From Macrostomum lignano (lineage: Eukaryota): 64,000 nucleotides of DNA. Where the stretch lies: NCBI GenBank assembly GCA_002269645.1, contig NIVC01000330.1, positions 124,001 to 188,000 of the forward strand, read 5' to 3'. Positions within the stretch are counted from its first letter, which is position 1; each line of letters begins with the position of its first letter. The position numbers and the translations under genes are program-made. Positions 24,678-43,405 of this stretch are shown piece after piece. The notes under the pieces are model-generated. The model was not told the DNA's origin. It was given only the letters and a program-made list of their open reading frames with translations, and did not search any database.

Positions 24678-27600
24678 GCGGATCCGAGACTGGAACGGCA
24701 AACGCTTGGTGTGACGACCGTTTGACAACTTCGCCCCATTCGTCTGCAAAGCAAGCGCAAAATGAATTGATAAGGCGAATTCCTTATATGGAAAGTACAG
24801 TATGTTAATTCTAAGACTGGAAAAAGATAACTCTGAAGCACTGATAAGGAAGTAGCCGCACTTAGTGAAGAACTGATACGGAGGCAGTGGCACTAGCTGT
24901 GAAGGACTGATACGGAGGCAGTGGCACTCTGTGAAGGACTGATACGGAGGCAGTGGCACTCTGTGAAGGACTGATACGGAGGCAGTGGCACTCTGTGAAG
25001 GACTGATAAGGAGGCAGTGGCAATCTGTGAAGGACTGATACGGAGGCAGTGGCAATCTGTGAAGGACTGATAAGGAGGTAGCCGCACTTAGTGAAGAACT
25101 GATAAGAAGGCAGTGGCACACTGTGAAGGACTGATAAGGAGGCAGTGGCACTCTCTGAAGGACTGATAGGGAGGTAGCGGCACTCTGTGAAGGACTGATA
25201 GGGAGGTAGCGGCACTCTGTGAAGGACTGATCTGATAGGGAGGTAGCGGCACTGTGAATGCCTGGGGATGGTACAGACAACGTCCTATAAAACGCAGGCT
25301 CACTTCGTTCTTGTCTGCGGTTGCGCATCTGCCGTTTGAAGATTAGGACGGCAACAAAGACCAGTATGGAGAATCCGATCACGCAGGCTGAAATGCAGTT
25401 GGAAGGCAGGCAGGTAGAGAACTTCGAGAAGGTACTACTGTACTAAATCGATTGTTGCGAACACAGCACAAGTACTGCGAGTACAGCGGTAAAAAAGGCC
25501 AAAAGGGACGTAAGGGACACTTTTTTGTTAGCCCTAGTCTGCCAATTTTTCGCAGATCAAATGTGATCAGTCAAAAATTGGCTTCGTTGGTAACAGTAGT
25601 CCTTGATACTTTGTTCGCTCGATTACCAGGAAGGGACACTGGCCTGCCCCGCCCTAAATTTTATTCATGTTTAGTCTCGTCCAATTCTCTAACTTACAAC
25701 AGATCTTCTCACAAACTTTGATAAAAGGCTTCAACTTCTCTTTATTGCAACCATTACCTGTCACCTTTAAAAGTTGACTTTGAAATTTGACAGGGTTCAA
25801 GGCAGCAACAATGACGCGCTACGACCCTTGGTTTGATTTTATGAAAGGCCAAATGAAAGGTCATGCAAGAGTCAGTGCGCAAAGATTGGTTTCGGGGTTG
25901 TTGTGCGATTCACAGCCATGAGAGCCAACCACCAAGGCACAGAGTGGACATGTCTGACAGTTAAAACGTCAGGGCTGCTGAACACCCTGTGTGAGCGTGT
26001 AACTGTGTGTAGCTGTAGCATCAGTCCTATCAAAAGTTGAAAGAATGTGCTCAGAAACTCGCCTATCTGTTGTGTGCAAACGAAAGAACTAGACTAAACA
26101 TGCACAAAATTTCGGCTAGGGCAGTACAAAAAGAGGCCTCCCCGATTTGAAACGCCAATCAAGTTGTGCATGCCAGCGGGGCGGCTCACATAGCACCATG
26201 ACGATGAACACTGGCAGTGTCATATTGGCGATGCGGCCAGTGCAGGAATAATCGAATTCGTCCGAATTATCGTAGCAACTATCGAATCCGTCGCACACAA
26301 GCGAATCGGGTAGACAGCGGTAGCGGTAGTGCCAGCAGCTGAAGTAGCCAGCCGGACAAACAAAGGAGGAGCCGCGCAGAAAGCTGCTCAGAGTGACATC
26401 GAATGCATCCTGGCGTTGTACAGTTCGTTTGGGATCATCCGGATTATAGGACAGCATGATCTTCTGCGATGGGCCTTTGGTCTCGTCAAAGTGCAGATCG
26501 GGGCATTTCTGCAGATAGTTGGTGCAGTTGCAGCTCATCAGCGGCAGCGGGTCGGCTGGCACCCGGACCTCGGAGCCAATCCACTCGTCTGGCACTACAT
26601 CCGTGCGCCAGCCAGTGAACATGTACACTGTGAAGGTTGGGCAGCTTTGACCGATTCTGCGCAGGTCGACTTTGTTCAAGCGTACAGCAATGTACAAGTT
26701 TGGATCTGGTGCTTCAAAGTACATTGTGCAGTTCACATTGGAGACTATTGGACCATTTGTAACACGGAAGCCATGGCCTCGCCTTGTGGTGTCATAGCAG
26801 GAATCCATTTTAACTGTGTTTTGAAAAAACATTAAAGAATTAAATTAATATTGTATTATATAGTTGTTACATTATATGGATCAATAGTTTAATGATTAGT
26901 TAATATAAAAGTCCTAATTAAAAGCAAAAATTAAGAAAAACTTATATCATTCTAAGAAATGCTATTTTAAGTAGGATATAAAACATCTTATAGCATGAAT
27001 AGATTTTAATACATTTTTATCTAGTACCATTATTTTTGTAAATTATATAATTTTATTTTATCATTATATATATCATCATTATTATTTTATTCTGCTTGAA
27101 TGTATCTACCTATCATTCATATAAGACATTTAGGCTATATCTATAATGGCAATCTAGTATACCTATATATTAATTTCTTATTTTTTAAATGGTCATTTTA
27201 TATAATATTAGATGAAATTCAGCTTTTATCTTTTTTGAAATACTTTCTCATACAGGACTTGCTTTTCCTTTTATTAATATATAACTCTTTATCTCAAAGT
27301 GAGCAAGTCTAGTTTAAAAAATCATCATTTATATCATTGTCATAAATACTAAATAAGACATAAAAGCTTTTATGCTTTAAGTAGTTAAAACATAAAATAT
27401 GTCAAAAGCTAATTGGACATGCTTATAAATCTAAGTAGGCTGAATTATTTAATAAAATATACACTCGAATACCAATATTTAAAAAAATTATACTTAAATA
27501 ACTTCAGCTAAAAACTAAACAAATGGGCCTTCTTGAACTTTGGGTAGATAAAGTAGGCCTAGTGCTATTAATACATATTTATGATGTCATATGACAAAAT

Positions 27601-27726: not shown

Positions 27727-29535
27727 CTTTCAACTGCAATCAAAAGAAATTGTGAATGCCTCTGAATTGGTATATAAGAATTGCTACACCAAGGTTAACG
27801 ACATATGTCAGTAACTGTACGTTTGTTGATGCCTCGGCCTGGCCCTGGCCTAAGTATACAATTAACTTCCCGATAATAGAATAAAATGAATTAACGCTGA
27901 AGCGATACTTAAACTTTGTTAAAACATTACATTACTCAGAAGCTACATAAATAAACGATTTAAAATTTAGCGGATGTGTTAAAAACCAAGTAAATTCGAT
28001 TACCGATTTAATAATTGCAATGATTTGTTTTACTAAGTAATAACGAAGCTTGTTGCGTTGGTTCCAGATTCCTATTGACATTAGCCAAAAATTGTTAATG
28101 CTTTTGGTAAAAGGCAGGCCTAATGTTCATCTTTTGATATTAATTACCTTTCTTATACCTCTATTAGTATTAATAAACCGTTTTGTTTTGAAAAATAGAA
28201 TTGTCTTTCAATATACTAAAACTGACGCGATGTTTGTGTGTTGCAAGTGAACTCCTACACTACTAGCAAGTCAGCGTCGAAACTTATATGGGAAAATGCA
28301 AATTTTTCGGATCAGGCTTTAGCCTATTTTTATGTTGTAATTTCATATCCAACACCTCCGTGTAACTTGTCGTATGCAGCTGGCTGTAGCGTACGTGCCT
28401 TAAATAATAAAAATGGTCAGAGCTCATTGAATCTATTTTATTTTTCTTAGCTTAATGACTGCAAGGACAACTTAAGTTACTTGTTATATATATAAGTTAC
28501 TTGAGTAGTCCTTGAATGACTGTGTAGCAAAATGCTTAATGCAATGATAAAATAGATTCATAAAATTATGAGCCGAGTTGTGCCATTTTTTATCATATGA
28601 TCACATGTACGTGTACAGTACATGTAGTAGGATGTAAAATTAATATACGAGCTCGAATCCTAGTAATTTCTAAACGAAAAAAATTATTAATGGAATAGCT
28701 AGGCTATAAGAAAGGCAAGTCATAGCAAAAGATGAACATTGGGTCTGCCTCCAATCAAAAGCAATAACAAGGTTTCTGCCGAAAAATGAAAACTGCTTGC
28801 CTATCTCCGTAATGTATATATTTTTTGGTAAAACCTGCATCCTAAAATTTTCCAAGAAACGTGTAGTTTCCTTTCCTACTTGAGTAGTTCTTGAAATAAT
28901 CCCGATTACGCCCTGTTTAATTAGCCTATCTTGCGAATATACGAGCGTATAAGATATCTTGCTACAACTGCAAAAAAGCAGGAAAAAATCAATTAATTTT
29001 TTCCAAGCTATTTGATTTTCACGAGCTCCCCGGGTGTAAAAAAGACATGTATACTTATGAATGTTACTGTACTTTGAGCTATTAGCAGCCATGAATTGAA
29101 TACAGTATAAAATTATTAAATATTAACTATATAGTTAGCATATAGAAGCGAACATTTCGATACGGCTGCGCCACCAGTGCTACCCCCACTCTACGAGTTA
29201 CTGTAGAATTGAGAAGCCAACAGCTCTTAAAAGGAGAGATCTTTGTTTAGATAAAAACGACGGAGATCTATATGTATAAGATTCAGAAAGAGTCCAGCAG
29301 GTTTTACTTCTTTAAGACAGAACGCTTTCGATCCAGTTCAGAAGAGTCGATCGATTAAATCGTTTGAACAATCGACCCCTCTTTCTGAATTAGTTTCTAC
29401 TTCTCAATCCATATGAGTGGGACACTCCAAATAAGGGTGTGTTCAGCTCAGCGCTTGTTCTACATACAAAAGCGAAACTTGGCTTTGCCTATAGTTATAA
29501 ACCACAACTGATTTGATCTACGAGCCACATACGAG

Positions 29536-30639
29536 TGTTGTAGGGCTGTTTATTATTAAGAAAATCCCACCGCTGTTACCAATTTTGTTGTAGGGTTCCG
29601 TCTCTCTGTTTAAAATTCTCACTGCTGCAACCTGTTACAGGGGTCTTGGGGGAGGGAAATTATTCTATGCTGACACCAAATCTGTTATGGGGAATTAATG
29701 GGATTCTTGGAATTTCTGAAGGGTATACTAGTTTTATTACTAATAGGAGTAAGCCAATGGTTGCTCCTGGTGGCGTGAGTGTCCGAGCGGCAAGACACTG
29801 TCTAAAGGTTAAACTGTCCGAAGGAGGGCTACACGGCGGATCAGAGTTGCCTGGGGAATTATCGCACGATGGGAATTTCTAATAGCTAGTAGGGAATGAT
29901 TTCATGGGGAAGAGTTCACTTAATGGAATCGCTAAAAAGGGAAGGGGCTAAGATTTCTGATAGTTAAACTTCCAAGTAGGGGAAGGAATACCGGATCAGT
30001 CGGAAGTTAGAATTCGGCCAAATAACTGAGCAACAGTAGGTCTGGATAGGGAGTTGGCGGAACTCCAGGTCGAATTCTGGGGTCTGGGGGTTAGGGAAAG
30101 AGAGAGACGAAGCTTTTGTTCACTGGGGAAGGGGGGTGAGGTAATTACTGCGCGTGTCTGCGGGGTTGAAGGGGGAAAGGCTGTACGCTCGTTCTGCTGG
30201 GGGAGGGAGAGAGGGCGGAGACTGCACGTCTCTAAATGAACAAGGCTGACTCAGTGGCTATTTTTAGAACAAACTGTTCACTCGGCACTAGGCCTGAATA
30301 GCGAGTAGCGCAAGTTGGTCTTCAACTAAGTTTTCACGCATGTATTTATAGTGGCATTGCTAAAAATGGCTGACAGATTCAAACAAAATACTTCTATTAC
30401 AAAATTCTTATTAAAGATATACGCTAAAGCTACTAATTTTATAGAAAAATAAACATTTATTATACGTATTATTACTGAAGATAGTAGCATCGGTATTTTA
30501 CTCGTAAAAAGGCGGTAAGTAACATTCTATTTTATGCTCGAGACGATAAGGCAAAAGTTAAGATTTCAAGTAAGGCTAATTGGAGAACAAAAACTAATAA
30601 AAACACTAAGTATTCATACAGTACTAATAGCCTGTTACA
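29536..30639 (-). repeat. 3' LTR (1104 bp)
   Basis: By eye differs from the other LTR by one G-run indel (~30131) and one substitution (GGGGGTTAGG vs GGGGGCTAGG). Confidence 0.95.
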
Positions 30640-30727
30640 ATTGGCTTTCCTGACAAAATTTTTCGAACAGTTTACGAGTGAAAAAAATTTTTTTTAAAAG
30701 TAGATTAAGCAGGTTATACTACTAGAG

Positions 30728-31765
30728 TCAAAGGTACCGGATCATTTCAGTCGGCAGGTTCCCAGGATAAGGCCAGCCACAGGCCTCACCGGTCCACTGC
30801 ACTTCGGTCCTCAACTGGGCTCTGTTGACCCAACCTCGGTTCAAGTCGTGCAACGCGTAGGCTACAGCGCGCCTCCAGGCGGCGATGGCCTGCTCGGGCC
30901 GCATGCGTCGCAAGGCCTGGACGGTGGGCCGCACATCCTCTCGCGAGGGGAAGGGCCGTCCGTCCATCCTGAAACGCCCGACTCGAACTAGATAGGCCTT
31001 GACTTCAGATACTCGACGACGATACTCGCCACGGAGCGCTTCAGGCATATTGGCCATAATGGTGCTGAAATTGCCGCCAATTTCGTGCAGTGGCCCGACT
31101 TCCGGGGGTTCTTGCATAAGTGGCGGAACTTCCACCTCCAGAGGCTCAAGAGGGGCTGCCGTCTCGTTCATAACCTGATGCTGGGGTCGTAACGGCGGTC
31201 TGTCCTGCGGTGGTCCTGGATCTCGAGGCGGTCTCACAGGTGATCTTGGGCGTGGTCTAGGGTCTCTTGGTGGCGAAACTGGGCGCGGTCTGGGGTTATT
31301 TGGCGGCGAAACTGGGCGCGGTCTGGGGTTATTTGGCGGCGAAACTGGGCGCGGTCTGGGGTTATTTGGCGGCGAAACTGGGCGCGGTCTGGGGTCTCTT
31401 GGCGGCGAAACTGGTGATCTCGGACGTGATCTTGGCGGCTGACGGTTGCCAAGCCGGCGGGAAATATGCGGTTTCGGCGCGGCACTCTGAGGCAGGGCTA
31501 CGGCAGCATGACTGCCTTGAGGTTGGCGTCTCGCCATCTCCGGGGAGACCTCGACAGGAGCCTCCGCTTGCTGCTGCAATAGCTGAGCTCGGTCTTGCGG
31601 GTTGGCAATCTTCACAACAGACGACGGACGAGGCCTGGCCCCAGGAGGATTGGGCCGCGTTGGCTGTCGTTCTGGGGCTGGCAGAGCATTCTCGTCGCTG
31701 CTACTGCTCAAATCTTCATCGCTGGCGCTGAGACTTAACTCGTCTCTCAGTTGATCGCTGGCCAT
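30728..31765 (-). CDS. Gypsy ORF3: unknown non-Env protein with acidic/Ser N-terminus, RPRPVSPP repeats and a C-terminal predicted helical domain (~345 aa)
   Basis: Uninterrupted ORF between the pol stop and the 3' LTR, same strand as gag/pol; ATG at 31765; no signal peptide or hydrophobic TM segment. Confidence 0.75.
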   Translation of the reverse strand: MASDQLRDELSLSASDEDLSSSSDENALPAPERQPTRPNPPGARPRPSSVVKIANPQDRAQLLQQQAEAPVEVSPEMARRQPQGSHAAVALPQSAAPKPHISRRLGNRQPPRSRPRSPVSPPRDPRPRPVSPPNNPRPRPVSPPNNPRPRPVSPPNNPRPRPVSPPRDPRPRPRSPVRPPRDPGPPQDRPPLRPQHQVMNETAAPLEPLEVEVPPLMQEPPEVGPLHEIGGNFSTIMANMPEALRGEYRRRVSEVKAYLVRVGRFRMDGRPFPSREDVRPTVQALRRMRPEQAIAAWRRAVAYALHDLNRGWVNRAQLRTEVQWTGEACGWPYPGNLPTEMIRYL

Positions 31766-32205
31766 CAAAACGATTGCCGTAGCCGGAATATCAAAACGAT
31801 ATTGATGAGCAGAATTGGGATATCAGAACGATATCGATGAATAGGGCTGAGATATCAGAACGATATCAAGCGAGATAACAATATTACAACGATATCAGAG
31901 GGAACAATATCAGAACGATATTAATAGAGAGCGGATATACCAGAACGGTATTTCACTGTCAAAACAACAGTTGCTTGAATTGTTAGGTAATCTAGCTGGG
32001 ATTGTTTAATATTATGGTCCTTCTGTCTCTCTGTTTTGGGATCTTCTCATTTTCGTGGCCCACCCCAATTTTCGTCTCTTTTGGGCTCCCATTTCCTCCA
32101 CGATCGATAATTTGAGGGGTTATTTGTACATTGGCATTGCCCATTATGAATTCTTTCTTTGTCTAAATTTTGGGCTTTGTCACGCAATCGGGGACGGCGA
32201 GAGGG

Positions 32206-35200
32206 CTAAAATTCTAGGTTGCGCAACAAATTGAGGGCTTTCAATAGGCGTTTTAGATGGCAGTCGCATCTTTGTTTGGCTTGGGTTGGGCGCCTCAGAT
32301 TGTAGGGGTGGGTGTGCGTGGGCTCGGGATTTCGCGGGACAGGAGAGGGGGGTAAGGGTTGAGGGTCTTCTTCATTCAAGGCTTCGTTTTCTGACTCATT
32401 GGTCTCTTCATTCTCTGTCTGAGCTTCAGACCATTCTTCAGCTATTTCTCCTTCATTATTCTCTTCTCTTAGTTGGCATCGCCAATTGATTTCTTCTTCG
32501 TCAGATGATTCTTCAGATTCAATAGGATTTGACTGATTTAATTCTGGGATCTTCCGGCGGGGGTGGCTTTCCTTAATTGGGAGTTGTCTCTTCGGTTCAG
32601 TTGAAGCGGGGGTAGGGGCGGAAGTAGGGGCGGAAATAGGAATAGGAGCGGGGTTAGGGGCGGAAACATAAGCGGGAGCGCTCTCCTGGCTTTCCTTAGT
32701 AAAAAGTTCTGTGGTTGAATTGGGCACGGGCGTTAAATTGTCTCGGTGCACTAACATTTCTTTGCCGGTCAATTTTCCATCTTCTTTTTGAACTTTAAAA
32801 ACTACTTCAGAAATTTGAGCTATCACTCTAAATGCTGATCGTTTCTTCCGATGAAATTTGTGGGACTCTTCGGTGTCTAATTGGGGATTGTTAATTAAAG
32901 CTAAACAGCCTATGGGGACTCTCAGGGGAAGCTTATTAGTTTCGGCGGCGGTCTGTCTTTTCTCTACTACTTTTTCTAATTTCTTCTTGACTATTCTGCT
33001 AGCTTCTTCTAGTCTTTCAGCATGTTTGGATATATAAGCGGGATAGTCGGTATGCTCAGCTGCACTTCGAATCTGAGTATCTACGGGTAGGGTAGCTTCT
33101 CTTCCAAATAATAGAAAATGCGGGGAGAATCCTGTTGTTACATTAGGGCTGGTGCGAACGGCTACTAGGGCTGCGGGAATTAGTAAGTCCCAATCACCGT
33201 GATCCTTATTGATCAGGCAGGTAATGATTGATTTAATTTGCTTGTTGAAGCGTTCTACTAATCCGTTAGATTGGGCATGGTAGGGGGTAGTAAAAGTATG
33301 GCGAATGTTGTAGAGTTCGCAGAAGGCTTTAAATTGTTTGCTGGCAAAAGTTTTTCCATTGTCTGTGTGGATCCAGGTGGGCTGTCCATATTCTGCTACT
33401 ATTCGTTCGAGTAGTATCTTGATGACTGTGTCCGATTTTTGGTTTCTGATAGGAAAAGCGAAGGGGTATCTAGTTGTACTATCAACAACTGTCAGGACAT
33501 ATTTATGACCTCGTTTGCTTTCTTTAGATATTGGGCCGATAATGTCTATATGCAGGCGGCTAAATGCTTCGCCAATGGGGAATGACTGGACTGGGGCCTG
33601 AACAAAATGTCCTTTCTTGCTCTCAAGGCAGGGAATGCACTCAGCAATTAACTGCTCAACTGAAGTGCTCAGTCCGGGTCGCCAAAATCTTTCTCGGATT
33701 CTCTGGAGCGTCTTATCTCTTCCTAGATGTCCTGCGAGGGGGCTGCAGTGTAGGTCAGTAAAGACTGCTTTATCTAGGGATGGGGGCAAAACAACTTTAA
33801 TTTTTCCGTCTTCAGTAATTGTTAATAATTCGTTATCGATTTCCATCAGCGCATAATGCTTACTGATCTTTTCTGGCACGTCCGGTGATTTGGGAAATTG
33901 GCTCAGTTTCTGTGATTTAGCTTCTAATAGAGTTCTAATGATGGGGTCAGCAGCTTGGGCTTCTTCAATCTGTTCTTTCTTCAAGGGGCTGGGGAGATAA
34001 TCAGTTAACAACTTCTCGCACTTTCCTGTCTCTTCTTCTCCTTCATCTACTTCTCTTCCTGAGACAATTAGCTTTGTCCTAGATTTGGGACATTCAGGCT
34101 GGGTCTCGCTTTCTGTCAGGGCTTCAGGTGACTGGGACATGGGGTTGTCCTTAGTTTCAGCGGGAGCACTCTCATCTCTCAGGGGAACAGGGGTCAATTT
34201 CTCAATTTTCTCAGGGATTGGCTCAGGGTTCTCAGGAATTACTTCAGATGCTTCAGGGGTTTCAAGGATCGCTTTAGCAGGCTCAGTGGCTGCGTCAGGG
34301 ACTTCGGAAACTTCAGGTGCTGTTTCAGCAAGTTCAGGGGCTACTTCAGGGGATACTTCAGGGGCTTCAGCTATCTCAGCTGGTCTTCTCGACAATCCGT
34401 CGGCATTGGAATGTTTTGCGCCGCTTCTGTGTTCAATGTCGAACCTGAATTCATTTAGGCGCTCTATCCATCTTCCTAGGATTCCGGTTGCTTCAGTTTG
34501 TCTCATGAGCCAAATTATCGCTTTATGATCAGTTCGGGCTAAGAATTTCTTGCCGATCAGATAAAATCTGAAATGCCTCATAGCGTCGACAAGGGCTAAC
34601 AATTCTTTCCGGGTAATGGGGTATCGCTTCTCAGATTCTTTCATTGCTCTACTAAAATAGGCTATTGGTCGCTCTATGCCATCACTCTGGATTTGGCCAA
34701 GGCATGCGCCAATCCTGTCGTCACTGGCATCTGTGTCGAGCACCATCTTCACATTTTCATCTTCGACGTATTCGGGGTAGGCTAACACTTCAGTGGACAT
34801 CATTCGCTGCTTTAGGGACTCAAAGGCTTCGTCATGCACTTTGCTCCACTTAGATTGGAAATTCTGAACTCCTTTTCGGGTCAATTGGAATAGGGGGTGA
34901 GCCACTTCGGCATAATTCTTCACAAATCGGCAATAATAATTGCATAGGCCAAGAAAACTGCGTAGTTCCTTTACGTCTTTGGGACGGGGCCAAGTTTGGA
35001 TTGCTTCAATCTTCGTCTTGTCTGTTTGAATGCCTTGTCGGCCAATCACATGTCCTAGATATTTCAACTCGTGATGGAAAAGGTTGCACTTTTTGGGTCT
35101 CAACTTCAGACCTGCGGCAATTAGTCGCTTAAACACTTCTCTTAAGTGATCTAAATGGTCGGCAAAATTTTGGGAGTAGGCGATTATGTCATCGATATAG

Positions 35201-36891
35201 GACATGGCGAACTTATGCTGGATTCCTAATAGGACTAAATTCATTAGGCGTTGGAAGGTTCCGGGGGCATTGGAAAGTCCTTGGGCCATCACTTGGTATT
35301 CAAATTGGCCTCTAGTTAGGGTGGAGAAGGCGGTTCGATGCTTGTCTTCTTCTTTGATGGGGACTTGCCAGTATCCTGAGTTTAAATCAAGGCTGCTAAA
35401 GTATTGGCTACCAGTCAGGTGGGAGAAGGTCTCTTGGATATTGGGGAGGGGGTAGGGGTAATAATTAACTCTTGAGTTGAGTACGCGGAAATCGCTCACG
35501 ATTCTAATAGAACCATCTTTCTTGGGGACAATTACTAGGGGGGTGGAGTAGGTTGAATAGCAGGGTCTAATTAAGTTTTTGGCTAACATATCGTCTAATT
35601 GGGCGTCAACTTGCTTTTGCAAGTGTGGGGGGATGCGTCTAGCTGGGATTCTAACTGGGGTAGGGTCCTTGATAGAAATTTCGTGGGTTACTAAGTGTGT
35701 CAGGCCCATGTCTAATTCATTCTGGGAAAAGGCTTCACGGTTTTCTTTCATAAGATCAATGACTGCTTTTCGCTGTTCATCTGACAGTTCGGGGCCAAGG
35801 CTCACTTCATTAATCCAGGAATCTTCAGTACATTGAGTCTGGTTGACTTTCACAGGGGGTTGGGGGTTGGGAGTTGGGGTTTGCCAATAGGTTAGATCTT
35901 TAGCTTTCATGGGTCTGGCTAAGCCAATTAGGGAAGTTTTAGTTAGATTCACATCTACTGGGTGGCGGTTAATAATTTCGACAATTCCTTTGCCTTCTTT
36001 CATAGTTACTAGGGTTGGAACCATTTCTAATGAGAAATCACGGGTTCGGACAGTATCGCCAATGGCTTCAATGGTCATGGGAGTGCCATAATTCGATTCA
36101 CAATTCTTGGCTAATTTCACGGGTATTCGGAGGGTACTATTAGCTGGGATGATTACTCTTTCTTGAGTATAAACTCGACAAACTTTCACGGGTAGGCGGG
36201 TATACTGCATGGGTATACAGGTACCTTCATTAAGCACTAGCATTCCTTTGGCTAGCTGAATGCTTTCACATTGGGACAGGAAAAATTCCATTCCTAAGAT
36301 ATTATCGCAGTCATGTCGGCATAGGAGGAAATCAACTTCGATTTGGATATCGCCAAACTTCACTTGGGCGGATACTTCTCCTTCTAATTGGACTGGGGTA
36401 CCGTCAAATGTACTAATGCTTTTGCTAGTGTCTCGGATTTGATCGGCACGGAATAGCTTAGACCAGGTTGAGCGGCTCAGGAAATTATTTCTGGCGCCTG
36501 TGTCTAGCAAGAAATCAATCGATTCTTTCTGGATATCGCCGACAATTACAGCTTCATAACCTTCTAGCTTGGTCAGGTCGATTCGGGATGGGGAATTGGG
36601 TTTTGGCTTTTGTCGCTTCTTTGAGCGGGTTCCAGCACTGAATAAAGCATTATTGGTTTTAATCGCATGGGATACATGGGGTGCAAGCGCAGTGGGTACA
36701 TGGGGTGCGGACGCGTGATGAGCAGAAATCGCATTGGTTACATGGGAAGCAGTCGCGTGAGCTGTAGTCGCATGGGGGTCATTGTACACATGGGGGTCAG
36801 GGGGGGCATTTGGCATGGCATCGTCGATTTCGTCAAAGGCAAGAAGTGAAAAATTATTGGGGGAGACAGATATCGCATTATTCACAGGCAT
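32206..36891 (-). CDS. pol: Gypsy Pol polyprotein (protease, RT, RNase H, integrase); frame is open upstream to 37068
   Basis: LLDTGA protease; DFRVLN, LDLNSGYWQ, YIDD RT; DTDAS..ELLA..TDHKA RNase H; HHCC-like H..GH..C..C, HIDIIGP, HTDNG, NGLVERFN integrase. Confidence 0.97.
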   Translation of the reverse strand: MPVNNAISVSPNNFSLLAFDEIDDAMPNAPPDPHVYNDPHATTAHATASHVTNAISAHHASAPHVPTALAPHVSHAIKTNNALFSAGTRSKKRQKPKPNSPSRIDLTKLEGYEAVIVGDIQKESIDFLLDTGARNNFLSRSTWSKLFRADQIRDTSKSISTFDGTPVQLEGEVSAQVKFGDIQIEVDFLLCRHDCDNILGMEFFLSQCESIQLAKGMLVLNEGTCIPMQYTRLPVKVCRVYTQERVIIPANSTLRIPVKLAKNCESNYGTPMTIEAIGDTVRTRDFSLEMVPTLVTMKEGKGIVEIINRHPVDVNLTKTSLIGLARPMKAKDLTYWQTPTPNPQPPVKVNQTQCTEDSWINEVSLGPELSDEQRKAVIDLMKENREAFSQNELDMGLTHLVTHEISIKDPTPVRIPARRIPPHLQKQVDAQLDDMLAKNLIRPCYSTYSTPLVIVPKKDGSIRIVSDFRVLNSRVNYYPYPLPNIQETFSHLTGSQYFSSLDLNSGYWQVPIKEEDKHRTAFSTLTRGQFEYQVMAQGLSNAPGTFQRLMNLVLLGIQHKFAMSYIDDIIAYSQNFADHLDHLREVFKRLIAAGLKLRPKKCNLFHHELKYLGHVIGRQGIQTDKTKIEAIQTWPRPKDVKELRSFLGLCNYYCRFVKNYAEVAHPLFQLTRKGVQNFQSKWSKVHDEAFESLKQRMMSTEVLAYPEYVEDENVKMVLDTDASDDRIGACLGQIQSDGIERPIAYFSRAMKESEKRYPITRKELLALVDAMRHFRFYLIGKKFLARTDHKAIIWLMRQTEATGILGRWIERLNEFRFDIEHRSGAKHSNADGLSRRPAEIAEAPEVSPEVAPELAETAPEVSEVPDAATEPAKAILETPEASEVIPENPEPIPEKIEKLTPVPLRDESAPAETKDNPMSQSPEALTESETQPECPKSRTKLIVSGREVDEGEEETGKCEKLLTDYLPSPLKKEQIEEAQAADPIIRTLLEAKSQKLSQFPKSPDVPEKISKHYALMEIDNELLTITEDGKIKVVLPPSLDKAVFTDLHCSPLAGHLGRDKTLQRIRERFWRPGLSTSVEQLIAECIPCLESKKGHFVQAPVQSFPIGEAFSRLHIDIIGPISKESKRGHKYVLTVVDSTTRYPFAFPIRNQKSDTVIKILLERIVAEYGQPTWIHTDNGKTFASKQFKAFCELYNIRHTFTTPYHAQSNGLVERFNKQIKSIITCLINKDHGDWDLLIPAALVAVRTSPNVTTGFSPHFLLFGREATLPVDTQIRSAAEHTDYPAYISKHAERLEEASRIVKKKLEKVVEKRQTAAETNKLPLRVPIGCLALINNPQLDTEESHKFHRKKRSAFRVIAQISEVVFKVQKEDGKLTGKEMLVHRDNLTPVPNSTTELFTKESQESAPAYVSAPNPAPIPISAPTSAPTPASTEPKRQLPIKESHPRRKIPELNQSNPIESEESSDEEEINWRCQLREENNEGEIAEEWSEAQTENEETNESENEALNEEDPQPLPPSPVPRNPEPTHTHPYNLRRPTQAKQRCDCHLKRLLKALNLLRNLEF

Positions 36892-37123
36892 TGGCTGTAC
36901 ATGGGAGTTTTTGCGGGGATAACGGAAACCGTACTGGGGAGGTTGCCGGTATTTTGGTTGGGGGGCATTTTCGAATGATGGGGAGGCCGGAGAGTAAGCA
37001 GAATTTTGGCCTGAGGGGCGTGGCCTCTTAACTCGACCCTGGCTTCTCAGTTTCCCGACTTCTGGGAGTCACGGGGGTTACGGAACTTCAGCGGCTCATA
37101 TCTGGGATTGGGGGGGCTGACGC

Positions 37124-38014
37124 TCATTCCTTTTTGGGGGGTTCACGCCTTGGCGGCTGGTTCATCAGCTGAGGCCTGTACTGCTGCTGAGGTTGCGGTC
37201 TGTACTGCTGCTGGGGTGGCTGTCTATACTGCTGAGGAGGTGGCTGCCTATACTGTTGCTGGGGGAACACCTGAGATGGCGGGGCGCATTGCGCTGTTTC
37301 AGCCAGTTGCTTCTGCAGGTTCTGAATAAGCCTTTCTTGGCGGTCAATCTTAGTCTGCTGGTCAATGATCAACTGATCGGTTCTGACCTTGTGCTCCTCT
37401 TTCTCATCCTTGGTTACTCTAATTCCTCCTTTGTGGGACATCTGGTAAGCAGCTTCAATTCTGCGCAGCATTCTGCGGGTGGCTTGGAGACTAGCAGGTT
37501 GGGCAAATATTAGCTTTTCACGGGTGTCGGGAGGGGTTCTCACACCTTTAATGAACTGTTCGACAAGTTCTTCCTCTCTTTGCTCAGCATCCATGTTCAG
37601 GAATGCGCGGGAGGCTAATTCAATCAGGGCATCGGCAAAGCTGTCAGTGGATTCGTTTCTGCCTTGGCAGCGATTCCTAAACTCTTCGCGAAATTCGGCG
37701 GAACTACCTACTTTTCCAAATCTTTCGATTAGTCTTTCTTTGAACTCTTCATAGGGGAGATTAGCTGGGAGGTTGAGGCGTTGAACTGCTGCAAACGCAG
37801 TACTCAGGTCTAGATTGGTAAGCAGTTCCTGCTTCCGGTTTTCTTCTTCTATACCTTCATTTTCACATCTCTGGTCAAATGCAGTGAGCCAGATTCTGAT
37901 GTCTTGGCTGGGAAGGTACTTCTGGATCTTCACATGTCTGAGGGGACCTAATTCTAAGCGGTTGCGGAGCTCTTCAGCTAAGAGTCCTAGGGCTTCGTTA
38001 ATTCCTGCGGCCAT
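37124..38014 (-). CDS. gag: Gypsy Gag (capsid-like region, coiled coil, QQYRP repeats, no CCHC knuckle)
   Basis: Begins just after the PBS; retrotransposon gag-like motifs (WLTAFDQRC, FRNRCQ..NES..SFA..L..LA..AF, QFIKGV). Confidence 0.88.
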   Translation of the reverse strand: MAAGINEALGLLAEELRNRLELGPLRHVKIQKYLPSQDIRIWLTAFDQRCENEGIEEENRKQELLTNLDLSTAFAAVQRLNLPANLPYEEFKERLIERFGKVGSSAEFREEFRNRCQGRNESTDSFADALIELASRAFLNMDAEQREEELVEQFIKGVRTPPDTREKLIFAQPASLQATRRMLRRIEAAYQMSHKGGIRVTKDEKEEHKVRTDQLIIDQQTKIDRQERLIQNLQKQLAETAQCAPPSQVFPQQQYRQPPPQQYRQPPQQQYRPQPQQQYRPQLMNQPPRREPPKKE

Positions 38015-38077
38015 TATACTTCAGGGATTGGGATGGGAAATTAGGCTGGGGTTTGAGTGCGCGTTTCTCCAGATTCT

Positions 38078-38096
38078 AATCCCACCGCTGCCACCA
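38078..38096 (-). promoter_or_regulatory. Primer binding site complementary to tRNA-Leu 3' end
   Basis: + strand AATCCCACCGCTGCCACCA matches the recalled 3' end of metazoan tRNA-Leu(AAG/TAG) plus CCA; 4 nt from the 5' LTR. Confidence 0.85.
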
Positions 38097-38100
38097 AATT

Positions 38101-39205
38101 TGTTGTAGGGCTGTTTATTATTAAGAAAATCCCACCGCTGTTACCAATTTTGTTGTAGGGTTCCGTCTCTCTGTTTAAAATTCTCACTGCTGCAACCTGT
38201 TACAGGGGTCTTGGGGGAGGGAAATTATTCTATGCTGACACCAAATCTGTTATGGGGAATTAATGGGATTCTTGGAATTTCTGAAGGGTATACTAGTTTT
38301 ATTACTAATAGGAGTAAGCCAATGGTTGCTCCTGGTGGCGTGAGTGTCCGAGCGGCAAGACACTGTCTAAAGGTTAAACTGTCCGAAGGAGGGCTACACG
38401 GCGGATCAGAGTTGCCTGGGGAATTATCGCACGATGGGAATTTCTAATAGCTAGTAGGGAATGATTTCATGGGGAAGAGTTCACTTAATGGAATCGCTAA
38501 AAAGGGAAGGGGCTAAGATTTCTGATAGTTAAACTTCCAAGTAGGGGAAGGAATACCGGATCAGTCGGAAGTTAGAATTCGGCCAAATAACTGAGCAACA
38601 GTAGGTCTGGATAGGGAGTTGGCGGAACTCCAGGTCGAATTCTGGGGTCTGGGGGCTAGGGAAAGAGAGAGACGAAGCTTTTGTTCACTGGGGAAGGGGG
38701 GGTGAGGTAATTACTGCGCGTGTCTGCGGGGTTGAAGGGGGAAAGGCTGTACGCTCGTTCTGCTGGGGGAGGGAGAGAGGGCGGAGACTGCACGTCTCTA
38801 AATGAACAAGGCTGACTCAGTGGCTATTTTTAGAACAAACTGTTCACTCGGCACTAGGCCTGAATAGCGAGTAGCGCAAGTTGGTCTTCAACTAAGTTTT
38901 CACGCATGTATTTATAGTGGCATTGCTAAAAATGGCTGACAGATTCAAACAAAATACTTCTATTACAAAATTCTTATTAAAGATATACGCTAAAGCTACT
39001 AATTTTATAGAAAAATAAACATTTATTATACGTATTATTACTGAAGATAGTAGCATCGGTATTTTACTCGTAAAAAGGCGGTAAGTAACATTCTATTTTA
39101 TGCTCGAGACGATAAGGCAAAAGTTAAGATTTCAAGTAAGGCTAATTGGAGAACAAAAACTAATAAAAACACTAAGTATTCATACAGTACTAATAGCCTG
39201 TTACA
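38101..39205 (-). repeat. 5' LTR (1105 bp)
   Basis: Starts TGTAACAGG on the minus strand and ends CCCTACAACA next to the PBS. Confidence 0.95.
38909..38916 (-). promoter_or_regulatory. Putative LTR TATA box (TATAAATA); equivalent copy at 30343-30350
   Basis: About 290 nt into the LTR on the sense strand; positional inference only. Confidence 0.45.
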
Positions 39206-40159
39206 CGAGTACTCGATCGGTTCCTCAAAACGGATTCAGCTAGTACTTTATCCAATAAAATAAACCAGGGAGTATCTGATCGTTGTCAGGAAAGTGGCAA
39301 TTTTTAGAAGGCATGCAAGATGACAGACGGAAACAAGCTGTCATGTTTCATTTTCCTCAAACTTTTTTGCTCATTTTTGTCTGAATCCGATATTATCCGG
39401 TTCCCATAAAGCGTTAGCAGCTCTCTCAAGTACCCAGAGCACCTCATACGAGCGTACAAGGATGAAAATACTGACTTTTTCATTTCTACGCGTAGTAGTT
39501 GAAAATATCCTGGCCTGTGAGACGCACGCAATAAATCGCTAGGTCAAACCTCTGCTTAATTGGTCGATCGCGCAACCCTGCCCCCCGCAATAGCACAAAC
39601 TCTATAGCCTGATCCTGTTGCCAGCCAGAAATGCACCGCAGGCAGAAGCAGAGCTCAGAGAATTGCATAGAACATTAGAACGCTCGCCAAACAACCGCAA
39701 CTTGCTTGCGAATGGGATCAACCTCTGCCCGCGCCTCGAGGAAGAAAGGATTAAAGAAGAAACGTGCCTGCTTAAAGAGAGAAAGACGATTGGGAGTGGG
39801 AAAAATCTATTGTACGCAACGAAACTGACCGGGCCACCACTCTACTCCAAAGTGCCGAGCAAAATTCAGTCCTAAGTACTGCAGACCAACTGTATGGAGG
39901 TTGGCTAGGGGCACAACAGCCAATGGTGGGGCGGCCAGTTGTCCAGATCGCTTTTGGATAGACGAATTGGGAAGAATGAAGAGAGATCGAAGGGTAGTAA
40001 GTTTTGACGCAAAAAGGGCGGGGCCTGCTGGGTGAGTCCCATGCGGTAGTAATCGACAAAGAGGGGTATCGACGGCTCCAGCTAGACAATAACGCGGCCA
40101 GAAAAAGGTCATAGATAGGTATAGACCAGGTTTTTCATAGACAAGGCGTCACGTATTGA

Positions 40160-43100
40160 ATGTCGTCGTTAAATGCCACGGCAACGACCGCCCTGTGCGT
40201 GGCCAATCGCAGATGGTACGTGTACCTCTCGTCCAGCGGCATCGCTCTCGCTAGCGGTGTGACTTTGGTGCTGCTATACCGCCTAGCCGAGTACCTGTTC
40301 GTGCGATATGACTCTTATCAGCGCTCCCGCCGCGTCAAAAGCGACACTGAAAACTCAAGTAATGCCAACGCCAACGCTCCCGGCGAGCAAACATCCGAGG
40401 ATGAGGGCCCGAAACTAAGCTGGACGACTGAAGCCAAGGACTGGGCTGGGGAGCTGATTTCTGGCCAGACAGCCACCGGGCGTATCCTTGTTGTCCTGGT
40501 CTTCCTAGTCAGCATCGCATCGCTCGTCGTGTACATAGCGGACACAGTGCGAATGGTGGAAACTGAGGAGTGCGTTTCCTGGCCAGAGAACGTTAGCCAT
40601 CAAGTCGATTTAGCTTTTAACATTGTGTTTCTATTGTACTTTTTTATCAGGTTCATAGCTGCGCATGACAAGCTGTGGTTCTGGTTCGAACTTTACAGTC
40701 TGGTGGACATCTTTACTATACCACCCAGTTTCGTGGCCATTTACATGAATCGAACTTGGATCGGACTACGATTTACCCGGGCCTTGCGGATCCTCAGCTT
40801 ACCGGATGTTCTTCAGTATCTGAATGTGCTGCGCACAAGCACCAGTATCCGCCTGTTTCAACTCATCACATTTTTTGCCTCGTTGGTTCTTACAGCTGCT
40901 GGTTTCATTCATCTAGCCGAGAATTCGGGTGATCCTCCATCGTTCACCAACCGAAACCGTAACTTTGACATGAACTATTTTACCTGCATCTACTTTGTGA
41001 TAGTAACCATAGCCACAGTGGGCTACGGAGACGTTTTTTGTACGACCACAACGGGTCGGATATTCTCAGCGCTGGTGATCATGGGAGGTCTGGCCGTGTT
41101 TGCTAACTCCATCCCGGAGATCGCAGACATTCTCAGCTCGCGCAACAAATACGGCGGCCACTTCCACAAGGAAGCTGGTAAGCAGCATATCGTCCTGTGC
41201 GGCCACATCACCTACGAATCTGTATCTAACTTCCTCGGCGACTTTCTACATGAAGACCGCGAGGATGTCGACGTTCAGATAGTAATATTGGACAAGCACG
41301 TGCCAGATTTAGAGCTTCAAGGTTTACTAAAGCGACACTTCACTCAAGTCGATTTCTTCCAGGGCTCCGTCATGAACGCGCGCGACCTGGGCCGTGTAGA
41401 TCTGCCCACAGCTGACGCATGCCTGGTGCTTGCCAACCGCTACTGCCCCGACCCGGACGCCGAGGACGCCGCCAATATAATGCGAGTCATCTCCATCAAA
41501 AACTTTTGCGACCACATCAAGGTGATTATCCAGCTGATGCAGTACCATAACAAGACCTATTTGTTAAACATCCCCAGTTGGGATTGGAAACAGGGCGATG
41601 ATGCTGTCTGCGTAGCTGAACTGAAACTGGGCTTCATAGCGCAGAGTTGCCTGGCTTTCGGTTTCTCCACCCTACTGGCAAACCTTTTCACAATGCGGAG
41701 CTACCGTGAGGGCAAGGAGATGCCAGTGTGGCTCAACAACTACCTAGAGGGCGCCGGAGCCGAGATGTATACCGAGTTCCTGTCGCCAGCTTTTGAGGGA
41801 CTAACTTTTCCAGCAGCTGCTGAGCTCTGCTTCAGCAAGCTCCGTCTGCTGCTTATTGCAGTGGAGGCTAGGAACGACGCAAATAGCTCTGAAAGCTGCA
41901 TCGCTATCAATCCAAAAGAAAACGTTGTCGTGCAAAAAGGCACGCAAGGATTTTTCGTGGCACAGTCGGCTGAAGAGGTAAAGAAGGCCTACTTCTACTG
42001 CAAACGCTGCCACGGTGACGTAGACGATGCCAAGCTGATCAGAAAGTGCCGCTGTCGATCTGTCGCCGAGAAGCCACCTTCAAAGATGATTTTCCGCAAT
42101 CGCCACGCGAATGCCAAATTCCCGAAGACTGTTGAGCAGCAGAATTCAGCTCGAAACGGTAGCGCCGGCGTCGCTGATGGAACTCCAGTGGGCGAGGCTA
42201 CGGAACTACGACAGCTCAGGGGAGGTAGGAAACAGTCGATGATTGTGAGCGCACAAGAAGCCAAGCTGCTGGACCAGGTAGAGAGAAAATTTGACTCAAC
42301 TGGCATGTTTCACTGGTGTCCAGATGTTAGTTTCGAGGAAGCATTGCTCGATCGGGAGCAGATGTCACTGACTGTTTTCAGTAATCATATTGTTGTTTGC
42401 CTATTCGCCGATGCATCTAGCCCATTAATTGGCTTGCGCAGTTTTGTCATGCCACTCAGGGCCAGCAATTTTCATTACGGCGAATTGCGTCACGTGATCT
42501 TCGTTGGCAATACCGACTACATGCGCCGCGAGTGGAAGACGCTGATGAATTTTCCCAAGCTGAGTGTGTTTCCCGGATCCCCCTTGAACCGGTCCAATCT
42601 TCGCGCCGTGAACATTAACCTGGCCCAAATGTGCGTAGTTCTCAGTTCAAAGCAGAACTCGGGCGGAGACGATGCAACTCTAGTTGATAAGGAGGCCATT
42701 CTCTGCTCCTTGAACATCAAAGCGATGACCTTCGATACGCCGCCAGAGAGTCGGCGTCGAGCAAACAATGTTCGCGTCCTGACCGAGCTGGCCGTGGACG
42801 GCAACGTTCAGTTTCTCGACCAGGATGATGACGACGATCCAGACACGGCGCTGTACATGACACAGCCCTTCGCTTGTGGCACCTCCTTTGCTGTCAGCGT
42901 GCTTGACTCGCTGATGAGCACTGCCTACTTCAATGAAAACGCCCTAACACTTATCCGTACGCTGGTCACGGGCGGCGCCACTCCGGAGTTGGAGCAGATC
43001 TTGGCGGAGGGCGCCGGCATACGGGGCGGCTTCAGCAGTCCGGAGACGCTACGCAACCGAGACCGGACTCGGGTCACTCAGCTGCCACTTGCAGACGACC

Positions 43101-43405
43101 GGCTGCGCGAATTGAGTCAGCCGGGCAGTACGTATTCGGACCTGTTCCTGGGCGCCCTGCGGCGCCACGGCATCCTCTGCATCGGCCTCTACAGGTTCCT
43201 AGCGGCCGAGCACGAAGCGACCGACAGTGAACAGCAGGCGACGCCACCGGCGCCTTACAAGCGATACGTCATCACCAATCCGCCGGCAACTTTCCCATCC
43301 TGCCCACCGATCACGTGTTCTGCCTGCAGCGGTTCTCCGCCACAGAGTCGAATCCGGCTTGAGGGACAGAGAGACCCTGGCTGTCCTGACTATTATCGAT
43401 TTTGA
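40160..43405 (+). CDS. KCNMA1: Slo1/BK large-conductance Ca2+-activated K+ channel alpha subunit, single uninterrupted ORF; conserved C-terminus continues in another frame to 43362
   Basis: S0-S6 helices, S4 GLRFTRALR, pore TVGYGD, RCK1 [14 protein letters not shown] heme motif, Ca2+ bowl [21 protein letters not shown]. Confidence 0.95.

Follow-up and report, generated by a model that had tools for sequence, protein, structure and literature searches.

Element-encoded regulators are well known from the complex retroviruses. The foamy virus protein Tas (Bel1) is made from an internal promoter, and it activates both that promoter and the LTR (PMC13220597). For transposons, the precedents in the sources cited here are VANC from plant DNA transposons and CERV, which belongs to a single LTR element of a nematode, Cer1 of C. 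elegans. CERV is a lineage-restricted non-Env protein that has SP sites along with a candidate export signal; it is produced from a spliced five-exon mRNA overlapping gag and possesses three folded domains and a Cys loop (PMC10309623). VANC of the VANDAL elements has a conserved domain and a variable repeat-rich region, its diversified types being tied to diversified non-coding DNA with known tandem target motifs (PMC5735166). Third ORFs are also found in the Oikopleura elements Tor3b and Tor4b, where the env gene encodes a membrane glycoprotein and is served by a promoter (Penv) between pol and the ORF, while being spliced in the sister groups (PMC4402516), and in the LTR retrotransposons of bdelloids, whose family-specific, non-Env ORF3s lie in sense in the env slot and code for a GDSL esterase, a DEDDy exonuclease or TM proteins (PMC5408684). 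Plant elements carry accessory proteins as well (PMC13547354), and the anti-silencers covered in two meeting reports are those of plant DNA transposons only (PMC12859917, PMC11512509). Given the bdelloid genes and the Cer1 nuclear export protein, the original prediction started from too narrow a premise, namely that extra 3′ ORFs of Ty3/Gypsy elements are typically env-like or antisense.

The gene described here, ORF3 of a Ty3/Gypsy element in the flatworm Macrostomum lignano, resembles each of these systems in part. Like Tas, it is a 3′ accessory gene adjoining U3, with a predicted internal promoter and with an acidic segment beside a second, basic domain. Unlike Tas, it has the acidic part at the N-terminus instead of the C-terminus, resides in an env-less Ty3/Gypsy element and has no sequence match in Pfam or among the sequences of solved structures. 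With CERV it shares the lineage restriction, the SP sites and the candidate export signal, but it is encoded by one exon after pol and has one folded domain and 1 Cys. As with Tor3b/4b, its promoter would lie between pol and the third ORF, but the flatworm protein has no signal peptide or TM helix. The conserved domain, the variable repeat-rich region and the tie between types and non-coding DNA recall VANC, although no cognate motif was found for ORF3, and the position and sense orientation recall the bdelloid ORF3s, although the flatworm protein matches no family. By sequence ORF3 belongs to none of Env, Tas, CERV and VANC, although it may work in the manner of Tas. It represents a protein family not described before that occupies a familiar slot, and the layout of its predicted regulation and of its evolution is unusual. 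A literature search of titles and abstract starts returned no description of it. The word ORF is absent from the main text of a survey of M. lignano LTR elements (PMC12801592), four annotated gene ids of ORF3-family members are absent from the supplements of that paper, and an earlier classification paper may mention extra ORFs.

The window, meaning the whole stretch of 64,000 nucleotides that was analysed, contains a complete and young Ty3/Gypsy element which spans 29536-39205 on the minus strand and has the following features.

38101..39205, minus strand: 5′ LTR, 1105 bp, 99.8% identical to the 3′ LTR across 1105 columns by self-BLAST
38078..38096, minus strand: primer-binding site, pairing with the 3′ terminus of host tRNA-Leu
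37124..38014, minus strand: gag, 296 aa
32206..37068, minus strand: pol, 1620 codons stop to stop, PR-RT-RNase H-IN, with an acidic tail ending YNLRR
32005..32014, minus strand: candidate degenerate TATA-like element (internal promoter), proposed from its position in relatives and not a strict TATA
31788..31921, minus strand: GATATC-containing short-repeat array in the predicted ORF3 leader, only in this copy and L031
30728..31765, minus strand: ORF3, non-Env accessory gene, 345 aa
31688..31765, minus strand: N-terminal acidic amphipathic segment and acidic Ser run of ORF3, activation-domain-like or NES-like
31247..31414, minus strand: in-frame 33-nt repeat (5.1 copies) in the low-complexity linker of ORF3, copy-specific
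30731..31075, minus strand: C-terminal domain of ORF3, ~115 aa, predicted all-helical, with nine conserved basic positions
30640..30651, minus strand: polypurine tract
29536..30639, minus strand: 3′ LTR, its U3 co-inherited with ORF3 type; TATA box at 30350-30343

The PR-RT-RNase H-IN order, the paired LTRs, the tRNA primer site and a target-site duplication of 4 bp (39206-39209 and 29532-29535) identify the element as a Ty3/Gypsy LTR retrotransposon, and the near-identity of its LTRs agrees with the young age that had been proposed for it. The complement of the primer site has 12 exact matches in the host's own genome, tRNA-Leu being found in the three of three that were checked. Outside the flatworms, the closest RTs are 48-53% identical to that of the element. 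Two other open frames lie in its surroundings: an apparently intronless frame of 1081 codons ~1 kb from the 5′ LTR (40160-43405, plus strand), which resembles what we take to be a BK/Slo calcium-activated potassium channel, and a 242-codon frame (26116-26844, minus strand) with a C-terminal hydrophobic stretch and a Cys motif that is presumably LDL-receptor-A-like. The pol tail (32270-32300, minus strand, and in relatives) ends with Y-N-L-R-[RP] in 14 of the 22 elements checked there. This motif resembles Tyr-x-Leu-Arg, the acidic-patch anchor of foamy Gag (PMC9040877), and by analogy it may tether the integration complex to nucleosomes. None of five short motifs of the ORF3 clade occurs in the six family sequences from the supplement of PMC12801592.

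ORF3 lies between pol and the 3′ LTR, in sense to both gag and pol, in an open frame at 30728-31822 (minus strand) whose ATG at 31765 gives a protein of 345 aa. An intact sense ORF of this size in the env position had been predicted, and the acidic Ser-rich N-terminus and the C-terminal sequence quoted with that prediction are as described. The repeat, read at first as 30 nt and about six copies, has in fact a unit of 33 nt (11 aa, RPRPVSPPNNP type) present in 5.1 copies with four exact RPRPVSPP. It is not family-wide, the closest relative L031 having a different, shorter version and the other types having none. Because the SP repeat is copy-specific, the weight placed earlier on it is unsupported, and it was ruled out as the functional core of ORF3. 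SP/TP sites number 0 to 13 per protein among 21 non-redundant ORF3s, with 8 in this copy. In L031 the last 32 ORF3 codons are tandemly duplicated in frame (L031:8508-8608).

All 21 non-redundant ORF3s are acidic over their first 45 residues, with a net charge between -5 and -12, and have a basic low-complexity linker and a basic C-terminal domain. The linker has four short conserved motifs, present in 16, 14, 20 and 20 of the 21 proteins respectively. The pattern phi-x-x-phi-phi occurs in 12/21 ORF3s (p=0.009), with none in the nine proteins of this copy's subclade, and psi-K-x-E in 6/21. In the C-terminal domain, nine K/R positions are conserved in at least 60% of 29 rows, and an AlphaFold2 model from 29 sequences gives six helices (pLDDT 87.5, pTM 0.82). 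A homodimer prediction, run without the alignment, scored 0.00, which speaks neither for nor against a dimer. Such an anatomy would fit a nuclear or nucleic-acid-binding regulator.

No signal peptide or TM helix was found in any of the 21 ORF3s, whose highest 19-residue hydropathy ranges from 0.27 to 1.04 (0.31 in this copy), and there is one folded domain, with one to five Cys per protein (one in this copy), none of them invariant. Pfam gave 0 families at E 1 for this ORF3, and with 29 members of the family no Pfam match passed E 0.02, which agrees with the original view that it is not an Env. A search of PDB sequences gave no match (best E 0.12), a word-index search with residues 225-345 gave 91 candidates of which none was significant, the ESM Atlas held no usable match for the domain, and a search of viral contigs gave none. 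As to structure, the confident model of the C-terminal part was obtained as suggested earlier, but no clear Foldseek match came with it, there being nothing at E 0.001 in the PDB and viral structures. The best VIA fold-search results (Z 7.4, rmsd 3.3, 92 aligned; Z 6.0, rmsd 2.9, 79 aligned) lie in the background range of helical bundles, so they provide no clear fold match and do not by themselves demonstrate a novel fold. Nothing in the fold searches stood out as a clear match, they speak neither for nor against a fusion-protein fold, and none of the known folds that bind DNA was recognised.

In its Ty3/Gypsy clade of the flatworm, ORF3 is a conserved accessory gene that does not encode an envelope protein. 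A search of the M. lignano genome with its last 115 aa found at least 150 places, all those scored (150 of 230 candidates) being at E 0.01 or better, and with a distant member as query 150 of 260 candidates were scored. Among 40 loci fetched for their diversity and unbroken domain, RT or integrase lies upstream of the domain in 28, gag and PR only in one and a gag-like ORF only in six, while five have no element gene within ~8 kb of the domain. The domain is present 1-12 kb downstream of 95 of the 111 RT matches at 80% identity or more, by coordinates merged by hand from separate genome searches. Four of the 16 RT matches lacking it were fetched; three of these lack everything from integrase onward and one has a frameshifted domain. 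The domain is present in each of the 43 elements whose LTRs share 99% identity or more, and 35 of them have a full-length ORF3 under a lenient rule that admits the frameshifted L051 and L063. Disruption in most copies, which would have spoken against the gene, is thus not what is seen. Pol is unbroken in 20 of these young elements, five of which have a broken ORF3. These counts come from picks biased to intact copies, in which assembly errors are indistinguishable from real breaks, and some of the loci sampled are haplotype duplicates, L091 and L101 for example representing a single insertion, or kin that are not independent.

Selection on ORF3 can be seen in the domain of nine close elements (36 pairs), where mean dN is 0.39 and mean dS, with 11 saturated pairs dropped, is 2.1, compared with dN and dS, in that order, of 0.017/0.22 for RT, 0.002/0.12 for RNase H, 0.011/0.51 for integrase and 0.015/0.32 for gag (dS 0.12-0.51). 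For pairs with a domain identity of at least 66%, those with L031 being excluded, pN/pS is 0.36 or lower in 36 of 38; it is 1.21 in one near-identical pair and undefined in another. The shifted and antisense control frames of the domain give pN/pS of ~0.8-3.3 in diverged pairs. The low pN/pS is specific to the ORF3 frame, which shows that ORF3 codes for a protein and is maintained by selection, and dN/dS is far below the value of about 1 that was raised as a possible objection. Constraint is also apparent in the N-terminal 100 codons and in most linkers. The synonymous sites are saturated without being over-dispersed. That they were driven apart beyond chance, as in an escape from piRNAs, was considered and rejected, counts of identical codons never falling below expectation past z -1.8 in 20 pairs.

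A profile search of 1.84 billion representatives returned eight matches, consisting of five M. lignano proteins, one Logan cluster and two that were set aside: P0008, a TPR-type repeat protein judged spurious, and the beetle match P0007, which extends over 40 positions of the profile (E 1.5e-9). No own-genome match at E 1e-25 or better exceeds 46% identity to the Logan protein, which makes it likely that another genome carries the family. The Pfam, PDB-sequence and profile searches found no match to a known Env or to a host gene fragment.

A sister clade in M. lignano (L071-L076, L082-L088, L090), with RT ~61% identical, has an ORF3 of 240-290 aa which begins just after pol and has 88 matches in the genome. 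Its domain aligns end to end with that of ORF3 (hhalign E 2e-4, probability 47%) and is modelled with the same helix order (pLDDT 90.4), and it is a probable homologue of the ORF3 helical domain. When the sister alignment was run against longer proteins there was no match among the 7995 scored, and for the sister domain the ESM Atlas gave leads at 0.90 or below only. Seven of seven sister ORF3s contain a basic cluster together with an L-x-[IV]-D motif preceded by acidic residues, this motif being absent from the present copy; the sister L-x-I-D could equally be a SUMO-binding motif. The L-x-[IV]-D pattern is that of Integrator-binding motifs in transcription factors (10.1101/2024.01.24.576984). 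In the eight of eight sister copies shown, a branch-point, a pyrimidine tract and a CAG lie 15-17 nt before the ORF3 ATG and overlap the pol end. In a third clade (L077-L081, L089) the ORF3s are different again, and profile comparison found nothing that links them to the ORF3 family. These are of two further unrelated types, with RGG-rich tails and tandem repeats upstream, and a TATA-like element precedes ORF3 in all three copies read by eye.

ORF3 and U3 are exchanged between elements as one block. Across 18 close elements, domain identity correlates with that of the distal U3 (Mantel r 0.88), the proximal promoter (0.78), R-U5 (0.66) and integrase (0.55), while r is 0.14 for RT (p=0.07) and 0.07 for gag (p=0.22). 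Where ORF3 types differ, none of 109 pairs shares U3 at above 62%, and one pair shares R-U5 at 82%; this copy and L031 have ORF3 and U3 in common but not R-U5. Grouped at the 85% DNA level, the domains of 28 elements with RT at 92% or above fall into at least 11 clusters. Sliding comparison reveals abrupt exchanges; within types, L038 and L047 are 99-100% alike in the flanks on both sides and 48-78% in ORF3, and L117 and L121 have 77 of 90 codons identical at the N-terminus and saturation in the domain. A domain dS of ~2 against an RT dS of 0.22, together with the block exchange, indicates that the ORF3 lineages are far older than the backbones carrying them. Balancing selection is one explanation of this. 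Another is a loss of homology between modules combined with gene flow in pol, and a hidden polyploid history of the host (PMC12801592) is a further one.

The many alleles could be kept by host pressure if ORF3 were a counter-defence effector, Vpx- or suppressor-like, which disables a host restriction or silencing protein and is blind to the sequence of the element. The deepest divergence within types centres on the coding part in L117/L121 and L038/L047, as it would near a balanced site, and the number of domain clusters and the long low-complexity linker with its conserved short motifs would suit such an effector too. We nevertheless think this role quite unlikely, given that the pN/pS values reveal no excess of amino-acid changes, that a freely trans-acting suppressor would leave satellites scant reason for a copy of their own and that no host partner has been identified.

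Such satellites are present in M. lignano (L062, L063, L064, L067, L068, L070, L128, L129, L130), with two LTRs and no RT, RNase H or integrase core, and all nine examined retain ORF3 and the pol tail. They also have a diverged mini-Gag of ~200 aa, which comprises the capsid N-terminal part, a hydrophobic stretch and a Cys-x2-Cys...His-x-Cys knuckle and is shortened or split in some copies. Between the pol tail and U3, a span of 2.5 kb, satellite L064 is 96% identical to the autonomous L111. The mini-Gag kept beside ORF3 would be expected of a cytoplasmic or particle helper serving in assembly, packaging, nuclear import or copy-number control, with the diversity of ORF3 arising by neutral module shuffling, since recombination ceases between modules that have diverged and continues in the conserved pol, and cassette boundaries can then form without selection for specificity. 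A particle component should track gag, though, which the correlation with gag does not bear out, and a separate promoter and an acidic helix suit a regulator better; a helper of this kind appears decidedly improbable.

No clear element-specific motif common to the internal promoter and U3 was found, three of nine uncorrected tests giving p=0.02-0.05 with A/T-rich words, and the short type-specific repeats in some ORF3 leaders did not reveal a systematic cognate motif. The U3s of L058, L065, L067, L069, L113, L115 and L117 have a conserved TTC-N3-GAA palindrome and TTGTTT(A/T)AA repeats, some of them also TTCCCGC-type words, and in this copy's subclade there is instead a CGCCAT box 5′ of the TATA. 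We take these motifs to resemble STAT, forkhead, E2F and YY1 sites, and if so the LTR may need no element-encoded activator.

With regard to expression, ORF3 is probably served by a separate internal promoter that lies between pol and the gene. A strict TATA is found 40-140 nt 5′ of the ORF3 ATG in 8 of 21 non-redundant copies, against 1.5 (maximum 5) in 300 shuffles. All eight belong to the 12 copies outside this copy's subclade, several of which have a CCAAT further upstream of the TATA, and none to the nine inside, where a degenerate A/T-rich element occupies a comparable position. There is no ATG within 86 nt upstream of ORF3 in 20 of 21 copies, the last upstream one in this copy being at -285 from the ORF3 start. 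Acceptor-like sites within 260 nt of ORF3 are lacking in 15/21 and scattered in six, a strong donor in the LTR is absent in 13/21, and a T-rich CAG was noted by eye near 31962 in this copy. Parts of ORF3 are covered, both here and in L064, by contigs of runs guessed to be RNA; these extend over neighbouring stretches too and contain no splice-type joint into ORF3. A contrast like that of the Tor elements is predicted between the ORF3 clade and its sister clade, the third ORFs of Oikopleura being likewise split into spliced and internally promoted ones (PMC4402516).

The apparent sister acceptor also bears on whether ORF3 is a Rev- or CERV-like adaptor, with the basic domain and Arg-rich linker binding genomic RNA and the N-terminal Leu-rich helix acting as a CRM1 export signal or other export licence, since splicing there would make export of the unspliced RNA necessary. 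The pattern phi-x2-phi-x3-phi-x-phi is present in the first 30 aa of 12/21 proteins compared with 1.5 in shuffles, in an acidic setting typical of true signals (PMC3442415), although such consensus matches have a precision of 4-12% (same source) and this copy and eight others do not fit the spacing. RS/SR dipeptides number one to nine per protein, and CERV provides a precedent in an LTR retrotransposon (PMC10309623), but ORF3 has neither a Cys finger nor a CERV-like domain layout, its own clade lacks a consistent acceptor or strong LTR donor, and the sister acceptor, overlapping the pol coding end, may be a by-product. Export is accordingly an unlikely role for ORF3, if one that merits consideration.

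The explanation that we prefer, still tentatively and with rather less than even confidence, is that ORF3 acts in the nucleus to activate or de-repress transcription of the element that encodes it. This explanation draws on the likely internal promoter, the acidic helix, the basic folded domain, the co-inheritance with U3, the retention in satellites and the sister L-x-I-D. A short mRNA would start at the internal promoter between pol and ORF3, which would allow production of the protein with no splicing step and no dependence on the LTR. The C-terminal domain, basic and helical, would then dock on element chromatin, at U3 or the internal promoter, directly or via a host factor, and the acidic N-terminal helix would recruit host co-activators for more full-length transcription, as foamy virus Tas does. 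Each ORF3 type would work best with its own U3 type, and this matching would keep many old cassettes alive while recombination homogenises gag-pol. It should be mentioned that ORF3-U3 linkage can arise from adjacency alone, as the two are neighbours with almost no homology between types; that within a type ORF3 moves relative to its LTR (L038/L047); and that the subclade to which this copy belongs has the weakest activator-type patterns.

The original prediction of a conserved accessory protein is upheld by the 95 of 111 RT copies with the domain and by purifying selection. Three features go unmentioned in it: the probable internal promoter, the exchange of cassettes and the satellites. Activation by ORF3 could, in its most specific form, amount to a foamy-like switch in an animal Ty3/Gypsy clade, in which an internal promoter gives rise to a small new-fold protein that activates or de-silences only the cognate LTR, the ORF3-U3 cassettes being specificity groups that are exchanged across a common gag-pol pool and picked up by mini-Gag satellites; we regard this version as a speculative one that is probably not correct in full. 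The candidate is clade-wide, under selection and structurally tractable. Natural controls exist in the many diverged ORF3-U3 cassettes on near-identical backbones, with L038 and L047 differing almost only in ORF3, and LTR reporters are already functional in transgenic M. lignano (PMC12801592). The system bears on whether an activator or anti-silencer can be encoded by the very animal retrotransposon that it serves and on what maintains many cassette types per genome and, if the switch is real, it would constitute a virus-like self-regulator in an animal transposon.
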